DNA of 64,000 bases from Pseudomonadota bacterium (GTDB taxonomy: Bacteria; Pseudomonadota; Gammaproteobacteria; Ga0077536): NCBI GenBank assembly GCA_036339995.1, contig JAYYZW010000039.1:35852-99851 (forward strand), given 5' to 3'. Of the stretch, positions 39,001 to 45,000 are shown piece by piece. The first letter of the stretch is position 1. Each line of letters opens with the position of its first letter. Position numbers: made by a program.

Positions 39001-42000
39001 GCTGAAACGGCTGGCGATATCGGTCGTGACGATTGCCGGCGCTTATCAGTCCGTACACGCCGAGGCCATCTATGCAATTCTGGACGACGCCATCATCGTG
39101 CGCGCCCGCGAAGCGCGCGAAGCAGAAAACGGCAACGCTATGTTTCTGCAAGGTGGCTTGGAGTTGCGGGCACCCGAGTGGCGGATCGATGCAATTCGCG
39201 GTGACATTTATGGCAAGCTGGAAGATCCAGATCGGATCGTCGCCGACGGCGATCCCGCGCGCATTTCCGTCAGCCGCTCGCAAGACGGAGAAATCTTCGA
39301 TGGCAGGGGCCAGCATATCGAATTCGAGCCCAACGGCCGCACCGTCAAGCTTGAGGGGGAGGCTGTCGTCGTAAAGGGGCGTCAGTCTATTCGCAGTCGG
39401 TCCATCGAATATAGACTGGACGAAGATAAGTTTTACGCAGGTGATGACGGTCGTGTTCGCGTAGTGACGACGCCCAAATCAGACGCTTCCTGAGCGTCGT
39501 CAAAGCGGCCGCCAGGTCGAATATTCCAGCGGGCCTGTTTCACCAGACCCCGATCAGGCGATCCACCAGGCGTTTGTTAATTGACGCGACCGTGCTCGTT
39601 GCGTGGTCCAGGCGCGGCGGCCCTGGCCATCCCGGATCGTCGAATTCAATCTGCTCAAACGAGCGCACATCTGCATATCGCGGGATCACGTGAAAATGCA
39701 CGTCCTTGTCGACCATCATCAGCATCAGGTAATTGATCTTGTCGAAAGAGAAGGCTGCGGCGAGCGCGAGTTCAATGTCGTGCGTAATCTGCGCGAGTTC
39801 CTCGCAGCCGGCCGCCGAGACGTCACCAAAAGCCTGTACGGGTTCCTTGCTCGCCAGGATGAGCGCGCCGAGCGTCGCCTGCTGCGGTCGCAATAAGACG
39901 ACCCAGGACGAATAATCTGTGATCAGGGTGTCCGGATAGCCGAACTTGAGGATGGTTTCATTCACGCTCTTCTACTCGCCTCGCCACGATTCCCCAAGTC
40001 CGACAAGCTTCCAGGAACTACCATTCAGCCGCAGGCCGACGTGACCGGAGCGACGGTCGAAACCCATTCGCAGACGACGGTCGCGGCATGCTCGAGATCG
40101 GCGTGATCGTCGATTTCACACCAGCTCAGGCCGTCGATTGGACAAGACCCGACCAGGCCTACTTGGGCAAGTTCGTCGATTGCGGACAGATACCATTGCT
40201 TGACGCCCTCGCTCGAGCGCATCAGTTGCTCCACTTTGTGGCTGAATTCGCCCGGCCCGTTAGCACGAAAGGCCATCATGCCGATCGATTCGCCGTTGAC
40301 CTTGTCCGTATTGAGCTGCTTGCTGACGCGCTGCAGGCACCCCTGCTCGACGATTACTTTCATATCGTCGCTGTCATAAGCGGCTTTGCTGTCGGTCACC
40401 AGCTTGATCGGCGCATCGGTGTTGCTGTCCAGTAGTTTGCGCAGGATCGCAGCTTCGAACAGCGTGTCCCCGTTGATAATCACGAAGGGCTGATTCATTT
40501 CGGTACGGGCCACCCAGCACGTGCCGAGATTGTCGCAGCGCGCATAGAAGGGATTGTAGAGCGTGCGCACGGGCATTGCGGTTTGGCGGGCAACGATCTC
40601 GTCGACCTTATCGGCGCCGAATCCGGTAACGACTACAACCTCTTCGATGTCGCAGCGCGCGATTTCCTGAAGCTGCCATTCGAGTGTGGACCGCCCGGCG
40701 ACCGTTAGGGCGCACTTGGGCTCATTTTCGGTCAGGGGCAGCAATCGTCGACCCTGGCCGGCACTCAGAATAATCGCTTTCATTCGGTTGTAATCTTGCG
40801 GGATTTTCGCCGGTTAAACTCAGCGCGACTCTAGCACGATTGCAGTTCGGTTCGATAACGGAACATTGCGCTCGGGCGTCAGGAAGTGCGTTCGGGTCAG
40901 CGGCGATTCCATTCGGCGAGATTTCTAATCGGGTCCTTGACGTAGTGTGTCGCCTGCACGATTGTCAGAACGAAACGATTAAACCACGTTCCCAGGCGAT
41001 CCATGGGTCGGTCGAAATCCAGAAATAGCACGGCACGGTATTCCGGCGTGTCGTTGGTGACTTCGTGCTCGTAGGTGTCATCGAACAGCAGGCATTTACC
41101 TTCTTCCCATTGACAGATCTGTTCGTCGATTCGAATCCAGCATTTTTCGGCCTGCGCGGGTACGCGTAGCGCGAGATGGCAGCGCACCAACGCGCGCGTC
41201 GGTCCCCGGTGCGGCGGAATGTGATAGCGCGGCGCGAGGATCGAAAACCAGGCGTTTTGCAAACCCGGCAATCCGGATAAAAGCTCCGTAGTGACCGGAC
41301 ATTCACCGCAATTCGGATGGATTTGCCTGCCGAAGATATACAGTACGAAGGTTTTCCAGTGATCTCCTTTCGAGATGCGCGCTTGGTCGGGCGAAATTTG
41401 ATGAAAGGCGGGGATATCCTCGGGATGGGCCCAAACCTGCTCGAATTCCGTGCGGATCTGCGGCCAAGAAGCCTCGATCAGTGGTACCCAATCGAAGCTT
41501 GCCTTGTCGAGGACGGGCTCTATGGCGATCCGTGAATGGCGGCCCTGGAACTCGAGAATTCCGCGCAGGAATTTCTTGCCCAAGCGGTGAACGACTTTGC
41601 GCCGCCATGTTTTAATCCGTTGCCCTCGAGTAGTCGAATCAGCCATCGGCAAGCACCCGCTCGGCGAGTCGAAGATCATCGCTGGAATCGATGTCGACGG
41701 CCGCTCTGGCATTGTCGACCGTGCAGTGTTCGACCTCGCAGCCGCTGTGCTTGGACAGGATCTTAAAGGTATCGCGGGTGGAGAGAGAGCGCGTGAGATA
41801 TCGCAGCAGCGTCAACCATCCGAGATGCCCAGCGATCCGCCACGGACGCTTACGCTCGGTTTCCAGCTGCGTCCACCAGCGCAGTGCGGCGCGGCCCTGT
41901 GGATTGTTGATCAGGAACAAATTGCTGCTGCAGAAAGCGGCGTCGCTGAATCGCAGTATTGTGCGCCGCGATTCGGGAAATGCGATCTGTACGGTCTGTA

Positions 42001-45000
42001 AGGGAACCAGCCCGGCGACGAAATCCGCGCGCGATTGCATGGCCGCAGCGCAAAAAGCATCGACGACCTGAGGTTCGAGCAGCGCATGATCACCGACCGT
42101 AATCAAGGCGGGATAACGGCCTAATTGGTCTACGGCTGAGAGCGCGCTCGCCGAAGGCCCGTGCGCGGGTTCGATCCAGTGAAAATCCCCTGTCCCAATG
42201 AGCGATTGCATCACCGCGTCCGTTTCGACGACCGCCGCCGCCGGACCGACGATGACGCCCCCCGAAATCACCGCGCTTGCCCTGAGCGTCGTGATGACGC
42301 GTTCGATGCAGGACCGGCCCGCCACCGGAATCAGCACGCCGGCCGCCTTTCCATGTTCGAGCGCGAATCGATTGACGCCGGGTCGCTCGCCAGCCAATAC
42401 GATTGCGCACATGTCGTCTGTCGGCGCAGACATCGAGCTAGGCGATGTTTTTTTCGTAGATGCGATAACGCTTGGAGACGTACCCACCGAGCGATTCAAT
42501 CATGTTTTTCATCGCTTCGTTGTCCTCGAGGATCCACGACATCTCGACCTCTTCAAGGCCCTTTCTGAGCCCGGGCGGCTGCAGCGCAAGCACGACGGAC
42601 AGGGCAAGCCCGGGTCCAAGACGTGTATTGTGAAGTTTTTTGCGTACGCCCATCAGCGGAATTCGTGCCGTGCGCGGGTAGTTGATCTTCAATCGGTGAA
42701 TGAGCTTCGCCCAACCGAAGGGCAACAGGCGGCCATTCAAGTCCCGGATCGCCTCGTTCAGGTTCGGCAGGAGAACAATGAACGCAAGCGCCTCGTCGTC
42801 CATCTCGGCAATCTGTATGAAATCGTGGGGGATAAGCATCAGCATCTCACGGCCGATCGCGCGAAATTCACCTTGGGAAAACGGCACAAAGCCCCAGTTG
42901 TCGGACCATGCGTCATTGAATATTTCGCGCATCTTCTCGAGGTCTTCGTTCGTGTGTTTGCGCCGCAACGGCCGTATATGGATGCGTTTTCGCAAACGTT
43001 CGATCAGTGAGGCGAGTGCCGGCGGCGGTTTGAATTTCGAGCTGATCAGATAGGCGAAAACGTCCATCGCCTTGCCGTAGCCCGCGCGTTCGATACTGGT
43101 GCCGTAGTAGGGCCGTGCGTGACCCATCAAGAAATAGGGCGGTGTATCGAAACCTTCGACCAGCACGCCGACTTCCTGGTTGATATTGAGGGAAAACGGT
43201 CCGCGCGCGCGCCGCATGCCGCGTGCGAAGAGCCAGGATTCAGCCTCATTAAACAAGGCTTCGAATACCGCACGGTCGTCACAGGCATCTAAGAATCCGA
43301 AGAAACCCGTGCCGTCCTTGTACCGTTCGAGGTGGAACTGGTCGATCTGTGCCGAGATTCGGCCGACCGGCGCGCCGTCTCGGTAGGCGACCCACGCCTG
43401 CCATTCGAGATGTCCGAACACCGCCTGTTTCGGCGACAGCGCGTCTTTTCTCTCAATCAACAGCGGCGGTACCCAATGGGGGTCGTCGCGAAAGACACTC
43501 CACGGCACGCGAATAAATTCATCCAGACGGCGCGCGTCATTGACGGGTTCAACGGAAACGGGAGCGGTTTGAATCGAATTCATCGGCGCCTGCATGTTAG
43601 CCAAGTCTAACAAGTGGATAAACCGCTACCCGAGGCGAACCACGCCTCTCGCAGCGGCCTTGACTCGCTACCGGTTAGAGTCTTACCGTTATTAAATAAT
43701 AATTCATACAGCGGAACTATTAGAACGCCCGCCAGGAGGTGCTTCTACGCGAAGGGGCCGACCTTCTCGTCTTTTGGGAGCAACCGCGGCGGCGTCATGG
43801 AGGAACTTGAATGGCTAGACAACCTCACGCCAATCCCGGTACGGCGCTGCAGAAAGATCATTCCTTTGCAGCGGTCGACGATTATGACACGCGGATGTAC
43901 ATCCTGCCGCATCTTGAGGAGAAGGCTTCGCGCGACGCGATCATCGCCGAACACCGCAAGGCCCCTCGGGGCGCGGCGACCCAGGCAGGCGAAGCGGCCC
44001 CTTTGAACAGTCTGCCGCTCAAGCGCCTCCTCGACAAGCTGCGCGTGATACCGCAAACGGGCAAGCACACCATCGTCGAAACAAAGCCCTGGAAGGAATA
44101 CACCATCGGTGTCCTGCCCGGACGACGAGGCGGGGTGGTCGAACTGACCGGCGAGATCTACCCGACGCGCGAAGATGCCGAACACGCGATCTTCCTCAAA
44201 CGCTTGAAGGCGCTCTGCGAGCACTATGGCATCGACATGGAGGTATAGACGATGACCGACACGCAATCCTGCATGCTCAGAATCACAGGCTACTCTGATC
44301 GCTTCTCGGCTCGGCCTGGCGACTCCGTCCGGTTCCACATCAACGCAGAGCAGAACGAATCCTTCGAAGCGGAAATCGTCCGGCTCATTCACGGCGACAC
44401 GAATCCGCAGGGCCCCGGTTTCAAGGAGGAATTGATCGCCTCGCCGCTGAGCGGTACGCATCAAGGCAAACACCAGCCATTGCATGCCGGCAGCTACGTC
44501 ATGGTGCCGCACTCGAAGCGTTTCGATGTTCAGAGCTTTACCCTTTGTGCCTATGTCTATCCGACGACGCCCCTCACCGATACCGAGGGCGTCGCCGTCG
44601 GTACGCAGGGCATACTCACCAAGTGGAACGCTACGGAACAGACCGGTTACGGCCTGTTCATCAACGATGCCGGGGAGCTCTGCCTGAAGCTCGGTCCAGG
44701 CAACGGCCGGGTCGAAGAAATCTCCACCGGCAAGCCGCTCTTTCGCAAAGTCTGGTACAAGGTTGCGGCGAGTTACGATGCAAGATCGGGCGCCGTGTAC
44801 GTTTCGCAAAAAGCTGCCGTCACCAACACCAACGCCGGGCACGGCATGAGCATGCTACACCCCCTTGAAGACACCGATGCGTCGGTCGCGACCACGCTTG
44901 CGGGCGCCGCGCCCGCCGCCAACGACTGCCCGTTCCTGATGGCGGCCAGCACCTTGAAGACTCACTCGGGCCGGTCCATCGGCGGTGCTCATTTCAAGGA

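Follow-up and report, generated by a model that had tools for sequence, protein, structure and literature searches.

The closest described relatives of the locus treated here are the phosphosphingolipid gene clusters of the Caulobacter type. In Caulobacter crescentus, CC_1162–1165 (spt, acpR, cerR and aasR) together with CC_1154 (the bacterial ceramide synthase, bCerS) make dihydroceramide, CC_1160 (CpgB) is the ceramide kinase, and CC_1161 (CpgC, Tam41-like) is required for ceramide phosphoglycerate (CPG) (PMC11324152, PMC9393093). The formation of ceramide di-phosphoglycerate (CPG2) requires CC_1159 (CpgA, a cytidine diphosphate (CDP)-alcohol transferase), the MobA/CobY/CofC-like nucleotidyltransferase CC_1153 and the LicC-like nucleotidyltransferase CC_1152; the same cluster encodes a phosphoesterase (CC_1158), a HIT protein (CC_1157) and an LptF/G pair (CC_1155/1156) (PMC11324152, PMC9393093). 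The amide-linked acyl chain is hydroxylated by the DesA-type enzyme CC_0202, which is encoded outside the cluster, and orthologous clusters have been reported in N. eutropha, A. vinelandii and P. luteola (PMC11324152). The present analysis concerns a five-gene operon on the minus strand (39540–43613) of a 64-kilobase (kb) stretch of contig JAYYZW010000039.1 from a gammaproteobacterium; this whole stretch is called the window, and all coordinates refer to it.

It is probable that the five genes constitute the distal operon of a conserved Caulobacter-type cluster for phosphosphingolipid synthesis and export, with a pathway as proposed below. The operon is one arm of a conserved sphingolipid synthesis/export cluster of about 14.5 kb (29267–43613). 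The gene families, the folds, the conserved motifs of an Fe/2-oxoglutarate site, the synteny and the match to the published cluster are established here. Clusters of this type are already published, including those of beta- and gammaproteobacteria (Olea-Ozuna 2024, PMC11324152; Zik 2022, PMC9393093). Modestly novel are a hydroxylase gene embedded in the operon, an absent ceramide kinase and an LptA-like gene.

The Operon and Its Cluster

Open reading frame (ORF) calling combined with Pfam and NCBIfam searches found five ORFs of the same direction, all on the minus strand, so that the original prediction of five genes was confirmed at the coordinates that it had given. The starts were refined from gene calls in 99%-identical metagenomic contigs and from the junction sequences; the first three ORFs had extended over 42438–43613, 41639–42499 and 40897–41712 before this refinement. 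In operon order, the genes are as follows.

42438–43595, minus strand: bCerS-like tandem-GNAT N-acyltransferase, 385 amino acids (aa); the ORF reaches a TTG at 43613; counterpart of CC_1154
41639–42433, minus strand: MobA/IspD-like nucleotidyltransferase, 264 aa; Pfam NTP_transf_3; counterpart of CC_1153
40897–41646, minus strand: dioxygenase of the Asp/Asn beta-hydroxylase (LpxO/OlsC/OlsD) family, 249 aa; alternative start at 41712; Pfam Asp_Arg_Hydrox
40025–40783, minus strand: LicC/PntC-like nucleotidyltransferase, 252 aa; Pfam NTP_transf_3 and NTP_transferase; counterpart of CC_1152
39540–39965, minus strand: HIT-family protein, 141 aa; HIT profile match; counterpart of CC_1157

The stop codon of the bCerS-like gene is separated from the ATG of the MobA-like gene by 4 nucleotides (nt), and the end of the MobA-like gene overlaps the start of the hydroxylase gene by 8 nt (ATGGCTGA). 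The spacings of 4–7 nt that had been predicted for the upstream half are therefore approximately right, with one 4-nt spacer and an overlap at the second junction. Wider gaps follow, of 113 nt between the hydroxylase and LicC-like genes and of 59 nt between the LicC-like and HIT genes. Transmembrane-like hydrophobic segments are lacking in all five proteins. A scan of 39300–44300 for sigma-70 promoters and terminators gave nothing beyond the shuffled expectation, an Rfam search of 28500–44400 matched no family, and repeat searches around the operon returned only short, chance-level matches.

The remainder of the cluster is composed as follows.

38885–39493, plus strand: LptA/LptC-like OstA-fold protein; Pfam LptD_N 35.8 bits; TIGR03002 (LptA) 51 bits, below the cut-off
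37768–38823, minus strand: lptF; Pfam LptF_LptG; TIGR04407 286.6 (cut-off 230)
36707–37840, minus strand: lptG; Pfam LptF_LptG; TIGR04408 315.5 (cut-off 240)
35746–36690, plus strand: calcineurin-like metallophosphoesterase; Pfam Metallophos 65 bits; in the position of CC_1158
34531–35736, minus strand: CDP-alcohol phosphotransferase, CpgA/CC_1159-like; Pfam CDP-OH_P_transf (PF01066) with an N-terminal soluble domain
33618–34541, minus strand: Tam41-like nucleotidyltransferase, CpgC/CC_1161-like, 307 aa; Tam41 profile match
32246–33448, plus strand: spt, serine palmitoyltransferase; NCBIfam NF047599 equivalog 581.9 (cut-off 500)
about 31996–32238, plus strand: acpR-like acyl carrier protein (family searches)
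30975–31955, plus strand: cerR-like NAD-dependent epimerase-family reductase (family searches)
29267–31024, plus strand: aasR-like fatty acyl-AMP ligase (family searches)

The link between the operon and sphingolipid synthesis that the original prediction had drawn is supported by the presence of spt, cerR, acpR and aasR in the same cluster, together with the Caulobacter counterparts, and spt was indeed found at about the 9 kb from the GNAT gene that had been given. The prediction had been made without knowledge of the published cluster type. The MobA-like and LicC-like nucleotidyltransferases, the HIT protein and the CDP-alcohol transferase stand where Caulobacter has CC_1153, CC_1152, CC_1157 and CC_1159.

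The comparison with Caulobacter runs through Azotobacter. In the Azotobacter beijerinckii locus (L068; L numbers designate the loci compared here), the gene order is exactly the published order of Avin_44240–44370, and its proteins are 31–57% identical to those of the window (bCerS 52%, MobA-like 38%, LicC-like 46%, CDP-alcohol transferase 39%, Tam41-like 41% and Spt 57%). Four of the five operon genes would thus be counterparts of CC_1154, CC_1153, CC_1152 and CC_1157, by a link that is transitive via Azotobacter and synteny.

Conservation across Genomes

A scan of one genome per species with the GNAT protein returned at least 595 genomes with a relative. The closest 80 loci, with no Caulobacter among them, were analysed, and the counts per gene come from tblastn searches of these loci with the window proteins. 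The whole block was found in the same order in independent assemblies (L004, L005, L086/L087 and L089), with proteins 59–90% identical, and was rearranged in L088 and L090. The MobA-like gene lies directly downstream of the GNAT gene in 66 of the 80 loci. Homologues of AasR and of the metallophosphoesterase were each detected in 47 loci, LptF/LptG in about 40, the LicC-like protein in 39, Spt in 37, the Tam41-like protein in 36, the CDP-alcohol transferase in 26, the HIT protein in 19 and the hydroxylase in 16.

Full 10-kb flanks are available for 43 loci, and in 31 of these a gene for Spt, AasR or CerR lies no more than 10 kb from the GNAT gene, a co-occurrence far beyond chance. Conservation of the operon in genomes lacking spt, which had been named as a pattern that would speak against the sphingolipid link, is not what these loci show.

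Several related clusters carry additional modules (L088, 2036–12431; L090, 2330–12392; L015, 11984–13663), including an acyltransferase of the Lip_A_acyltrans family, an MsbA-like ABC transporter, a DAGK_cat kinase and a GMC oxidoreductase beside the hydroxylase; in a Lysobacterales metagenome-assembled genome (MAG), the GMC oxidoreductase is present and the hydroxylase absent. These modules suggest further uncharacterised ceramide modifications. A small Cupin_7 (ChrR-like) gene lies divergently upstream of the bCerS gene in L004 (9366–9812), L005 (9421–9867) and L089 (7453–7893); the window and L086 do not have it, and there genes resembling N,N-dimethylformamidase (DMFase) abut the operon.

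The Candidate Ceramide Synthase

The ORF at 42438–43613 matched Acetyltransf_1 weakly (17.9 bits, below the Pfam cut-off) and no NCBIfam family, and a sequence search of the PDB with the GNAT protein gave no match. Structure prediction with database homologues and a fold search identified a soluble acyl-CoA N-acyltransferase fold of the GNAT type in a tandem arrangement, and a fold outside the acyltransferases, which would have spoken against the assignment, was not found. The protein is 52% identical to that of A. beijerinckii L068 over residues 15–384. Avin_44290 is in turn 47% identical to CC_1154 (E = 7e-111) (PMC11324152). The A. beijerinckii and A. vinelandii proteins are presumed to correspond in this indirect homology link. 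Both spt and cerR lie 9–11 kb from the GNAT gene in the window. The GNAT protein is accordingly a candidate bacterial ceramide synthase and the likely counterpart of CC_1154, as judged from homology and position. The prediction of a soluble acyltransferase-like ceramide synthase stands, given the fold, the Azotobacter match and the neighbourhood of spt; its length was adjusted from 391 to 385 aa by the refined start.

The Embedded Hydroxylase

The third gene of the operon encodes a protein of the Pfam family Asp_Arg_Hydrox (PF05118, 172.9 bits). Its stretches HIPPHRGPT, FDDTYEHEV and YRAVLF are conserved and align with HVWPHTGPT, FDDSFEHEV and FRLIF of human ASPH, which we take to be the sites of the two iron-binding histidines and of the arginine that binds 2-oxoglutarate. 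It is very likely, on the evidence of these motifs, that the protein is an active Fe(II)/2-oxoglutarate oxygenase.

In 16 of the 80 loci, a homologue of the hydroxylase is encoded no more than 10 kb from the bCerS gene, and several arrangements occur. The order of the window (MobA-like, hydroxylase, LicC-like) is one of these; in L013, L019, L030, L038, L088 and L090, the order is MobA-like, kinase, hydroxylase, LicC-like, with a GMC oxidoreductase gene between the last two in some cases. In Azotobacter and Pseudomonas asuensis the homologue lies beyond or beside the Tam41-like gene, and in a Methylotenera MAG it lies upstream of spt. At least four distinct positions within sphingolipid clusters are thereby represented. 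When loci were reached via homologues of the hydroxylase (59–90% identity), a bCerS-like gene was present in all six and spt in five of the six. No paper in the library that was searched links the LpxO/OlsC-type hydroxylase family to bacterial sphingolipid clusters.

Because its relatives sit in sphingolipid clusters and do so at several positions, the enzyme is regarded as a candidate ceramide acyl 2-hydroxylase, a role predicted from the chemistry of the family and the genomic context. The original description of an LpxO/OlsC-like 2-hydroxylase is therefore retained with respect to the family, for which PF05118 and the conserved site speak; the OlsC and LpxO equivalog scores were missed, and the role is supported by context.

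Nucleotidyltransferases and the HIT Protein

The two nucleotidyltransferases that had been predicted are both present, the MobA-like one matching Pfam NTP_transf_3 (37.3 bits for the ORF at 41639–42499) and the LicC-like one matching NTP_transf_3 and NTP_transferase. Both genes lie near that of bCerS, and this adjacency is kept across loci. A CofC/FbiD-type function has been suggested in the literature for CC_1153. The corresponding identity of the MobA-like enzyme as a 2-phospholactate/phosphoglycerate guanylyltransferase was not supported, as CofC/FbiD did not emerge as its closest relatives. The best solved relatives of the 252-aa LicC-like enzyme are PntC (6pd1, E = 5e-14) and LicC (1jyk, E = 5e-12), and no NCBIfam equivalog cut-off was reached. 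Because CC_1152, CC_1153 and CC_1159 are required for CPG2, the two nucleotidyltransferase genes and the CDP-alcohol transferase gene are not taken for genes that activate sugars of lipopolysaccharide (LPS) or capsule, the grouping that had been named as damaging to the sphingolipid assignment.

The membership of a HIT protein in the operon was also borne out, and a profile search was needed for this. The single sequence scored 18.4 bits against Pfam HIT, below the cut-off of 21.5, and a profile of 23 orthologues retrieved the HIT protein 2oik (E = 3.5e-10) and Fhit (E = 2e-3). The motif in the window is D-V-H-F-H-V-I-P-R and that of the orthologues [D/H/E]-V-H-F-H-V-x-P-R, so that the HIT proteins of these clusters have an H-F/Y-H core with two invariant histidines, and the first histidine of the triad is variable (Asp in the window, His or Glu elsewhere). 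The HIT gene accompanies the pathway in 19 of the 80 loci, although CC_1157 was judged "probably unrelated" to it in Caulobacter (PMC11324152).

Head-Group and Export Genes

The signature D-x2-D-G-x2-A-R-x8-G-x3-D-x3-D of CDP-alcohol phosphotransferases is complete in the translation of the gene at 34531–35736, and the protein has C-terminal hydrophobic segments; its matches in NCBIfam, to inositol-phosphate-type synthases, are weak. The adjoining gene, which has the same neighbour in relatives, encodes the 307-aa Tam41-like protein. As a single sequence, this protein matched no Pfam or NCBIfam family; a profile of 34 orthologues matched Tam41 (6ig2, E = 1.8e-5), and the protein is 41% identical to the product of the A. 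beijerinckii gene at the position of Avin_44370. The LptA-like gene is convergent with the HIT gene and divergent from lptF, a position that is kept in L004, L005, L086 and L089.

A DgkA-type lipid kinase is encoded at 25183–25635, 3.6 kb upstream of aasR, with a lexA/imuB-like block in between; in a Rhodanobacter MAG (L036, 9378–11128) the bCerS gene has a dgkA homologue immediately upstream. Possibly, a DgkA-type kinase acts as a stand-in for the absent CpgB ceramide kinase.

Proposed Pathway and Alternative Explanations

The pathway proposed here relies on inference for every substrate, for the site that is hydroxylated, for the nature of the head group and for where the ceramide phosphate comes from. 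For the backbone, family assignments and published genetics suggest that AasR would load AcpR, after which Spt would condense acyl-AcpR with serine to 3-ketosphinganine. The bCerS-like protein would N-acylate this intermediate in the cytoplasm, and CerR would then reduce the product to dihydroceramide. The soluble dioxygenase, which appears to be translationally coupled to the MobA-like gene, would hydroxylate an acyl chain of the ceramide, most likely at C2 of the amide-linked chain, and so take the role of the unrelated DesA-type CC_0202 of Caulobacter. For the head group, the CC_1153-like and CC_1152-like nucleotidyltransferases may produce small-molecule donors activated by a nucleoside diphosphate, which the CpgA-like transferase and the Tam41-like CpgC homologue would use to form a phospho-head group that is anionic and of the CPG/CPG2 type. 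The processing of nucleotide-linked intermediates may fall to the HIT protein and the metallophosphoesterase, and LptF/LptG and the LptA-like protein would carry the lipid to the outer membrane.

A number of observations weigh against this proposal. A tblastn search with the A. beijerinckii kinase (L068:16406–17377) found no CpgB-type kinase in the window at E ≤ 1e-3, and no DAGK_cat domain was found among the annotated ORFs of the window. The same query detected 26 other loci, and a DAGK_cat kinase is present in 27 of the 80 loci overall, these being more distant ones; in the closest clade (L004–L012, L086, L087 and L089), no CpgB-type kinase was found within the cluster. Therefore, the Caulobacter pathway cannot run as published from the genes of the window alone, and the initial phosphorylation of ceramide is unaccounted for by them. 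The claim of a "full toolkit" for N-acylation, 2-hydroxylation and attachment of a CDP-activated head group was overstated in view of the missing ceramide kinase. The MobA-like enzyme is structurally closer to IspD-type cytidylyltransferases than to CofC, which weakens the published idea of phosphoglycerate activation. The hydroxylase scored 211.1 bits against the NCBIfam model of OlsC (cut-off 450) and 109.4 bits against that of LpxO (cut-off 500), thus missing both equivalog cut-offs. By the NCBIfam cut-offs, LptF and LptG count as canonical LPS permeases, and their dedication to sphingolipids is for this reason unproven; together with the LptA-like protein, they may be the housekeeping Lpt proteins of the organism and not divergent second copies as in Caulobacter. 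Mutants of CC_1157 showed no cofitness with the pathway in Caulobacter (PMC11324152). The orthology to CC_1152–1157, finally, rests on the two-step link via Azotobacter and on synteny.

As the kinase is missing, a different chemistry for the head group within the same cluster has to be considered. The product of the LicC/PntC-like enzyme would be a CDP-alcohol (for example CDP-glycerol, -ethanolamine, -choline, -aminoethylphosphonate or -inositol), from which the CDP-alcohol phosphotransferase would pass the phospho-alcohol straight to the 1-OH of ceramide, giving a ceramide phospho-X instead of ceramide phosphoglycerate. The distribution of the kinase fits this idea, since neither the window nor the clusters of the closest clade have a DAGK_cat kinase and more distant clusters have one, and so do the nearest relatives of the 252-aa enzyme, which are specific for 2-aminoethylphosphonate and phosphocholine, and the weak matches of the CDP-alcohol transferase to inositol-phosphate-type synthases. 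However, the Tam41-like CpgC homologue has been kept and, by analogy with Tam41, depends on a phosphorylated lipid as its substrate; the LicC-like and CDP-alcohol transferase proteins occupy the cluster positions of CC_1152 and CC_1159; and the kinase may be encoded elsewhere, the DgkA-type gene at 25183–25635 being one candidate. We consider direct transfer unlikely as an explanation of the locus as a whole. The possibility that the operon tailors LPS/lipid A or ornithine lipids is far less likely still. It would make the hydroxylase an orthologue of OlsC or LpxO, which are its best NCBIfam matches, the nucleotidyltransferases activators of core or decoration groups, LptFG ordinary and spt an incidental neighbour. 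Some homologues of the hydroxylase are named "ornithine lipid ester-linked acyl 2-hydroxylase" by JGI, LptF and LptG score as canonical, and the clusters of L088 and L090 include genes for an MsbA-like ABC transporter and for an acyltransferase of the lipid A type. Against this, the hydroxylase scores fall far short of the equivalog cut-offs of OlsC (211 versus 450) and LpxO (109 versus 500), no OlsB-, OlsA- or OlsF-type gene or lipid A gene is present among the annotated ORFs of the window, all six loci reached through the hydroxylase have a bCerS-like gene and five of them spt, and the counterparts of the nucleotidyltransferases and the CDP-alcohol transferase are genetically tied to the phosphosphingolipids of Caulobacter. 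Tailoring of LPS or ornithine lipids was thus rejected on genomic context.

That the GNAT protein of 385 aa is instead an unrelated N-acetyltransferase for small molecules (glucosamine, mycothiol or aminoglycoside type) is most improbable. The identity to structures of such enzymes is only 10–16%, most loci keep the synteny of the gene with spt, cerR, acpR and aasR, and the identity reaches 52% with the Azotobacter protein that occupies the place of the published CC_1154 orthologue. The Caulobacter-type phosphosphingolipid cluster is retained as the preferred explanation. A more specific version, in which the hydroxylase is a dedicated ceramide N-acyl 2-hydroxylase and, at the same time, the kinase-less clade transfers a CDP-alcohol directly to ceramide to give a phosphosphingolipid differing from CPG2, is put forward tentatively; the two parts taken jointly have a chance that falls a little short of even.

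Genomic Neighbourhood

Immediately upstream, the operon is flanked by two tandem pairs of genes for DMFase-like alpha and beta subunits, and L004 and L086 have the same neighbours. Farther on follow a glutamine-synthetase-like gene, accompanied by GATase, GXGXG and Glu_synthase genes, and a DAO-GCV_T dehydrogenase. The DMFase-like and methylated-amine-type genes span 43811–50484, 59292–63924 and 18663–21110, and this looks like a neighbourhood for the catabolism of dimethylformamide and methylated amines. On the other side of the cluster, 25750–28614 contains lexA, followed by an ORF of 210 aa without annotation and a gene of the ImpB/MucB family (imuB-like); the block resembles an SOS mutagenesis cassette, with no dnaE2-like polymerase gene before aasR. 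A carbamoyltransferase gene (Carbam_trans_N/C) followed by a gene for a small SxtJ-family membrane protein (14528–16782), with a sulfotransferase-domain gene farther upstream (5728–6564), completes the picture.

Significance

Anionic sphingolipids can partly replace LPS in the outer membrane and, in Caulobacter, set the sensitivity to polymyxin. The Caulobacter-type cluster is widespread, with a bCerS-like gene in at least 595 species-representative genomes, and has modular variants. The enzymology after ceramide is an unsettled field, to which the locus supplies testable candidates for gene function and nothing that would surprise a specialist. An enzyme of the OlsC/LpxO family is nominated as the ceramide hydroxylase of many gamma- and betaproteobacteria. 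If this is true, ceramide would be the third lipid class for the family, after lipid A and ornithine lipids, and the enzyme would be a non-orthologous replacement of both the Caulobacter DesA-type hydroxylase and eukaryotic FA2H. The clade without a ceramide kinase in its cluster offers a natural experiment on head-group attachment.

Comparison with Known Systems

LpxO is an inner-membrane enzyme that 2-hydroxylates lipid A in Salmonella, and OlsC and OlsD 2-hydroxylate the acyl chains of ornithine lipids. The hydroxylase of the window shares with them the Pfam family PF05118, the conserved stretches of the Fe(II)/2-oxoglutarate site and a genomic tie to an outer-membrane lipid pathway. It differs in that it scores well below both NCBIfam equivalog cut-offs, has no transmembrane-like segment, unlike LpxO, and stands in the context of spt and bCerS and not of ols or lpx genes.

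LicC is a CTP:phosphocholine cytidylyltransferase and PntC a CTP:2-aminoethylphosphonate cytidylyltransferase. Among solved structures, these two come closest to the 252-aa enzyme and have the N-terminal nucleotide-binding region in common with it; the identity is low, however, and the context predicts that the enzyme makes a donor for a sphingolipid head group. Similarly, the 307-aa protein has the G-S...D-x-[Y/F] nucleotidyltransferase motif of Tam41, the mitochondrial phosphatidate cytidylyltransferase, but its presumed substrate is ceramide-1-phosphate and not phosphatidate.

With respect to Caulobacter CC_1152–CC_1165, the most visible difference is the hydroxylase gene between the two nucleotidyltransferase genes, as none is present among the 17 genes of the Caulobacter cluster. 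The window is without the CpgB/CC_1160 kinase, no homologue of the CC_1166 flippase or of CC_1167 was seen in it, an LptA-like protein is found in place of LptC2 (CC_1168), and LptF/G score as canonical and not as divergent second copies. The likeness, on the other hand, extends to the families of aasR, cerR, acpR, spt, the Tam41-like protein, the CDP-alcohol transferase and the metallophosphoesterase, as well as to the HIT protein, the LptF/G pair, bCerS and the MobA-like and LicC-like nucleotidyltransferases, and in both clusters the MobA-like gene comes directly after that of bCerS.

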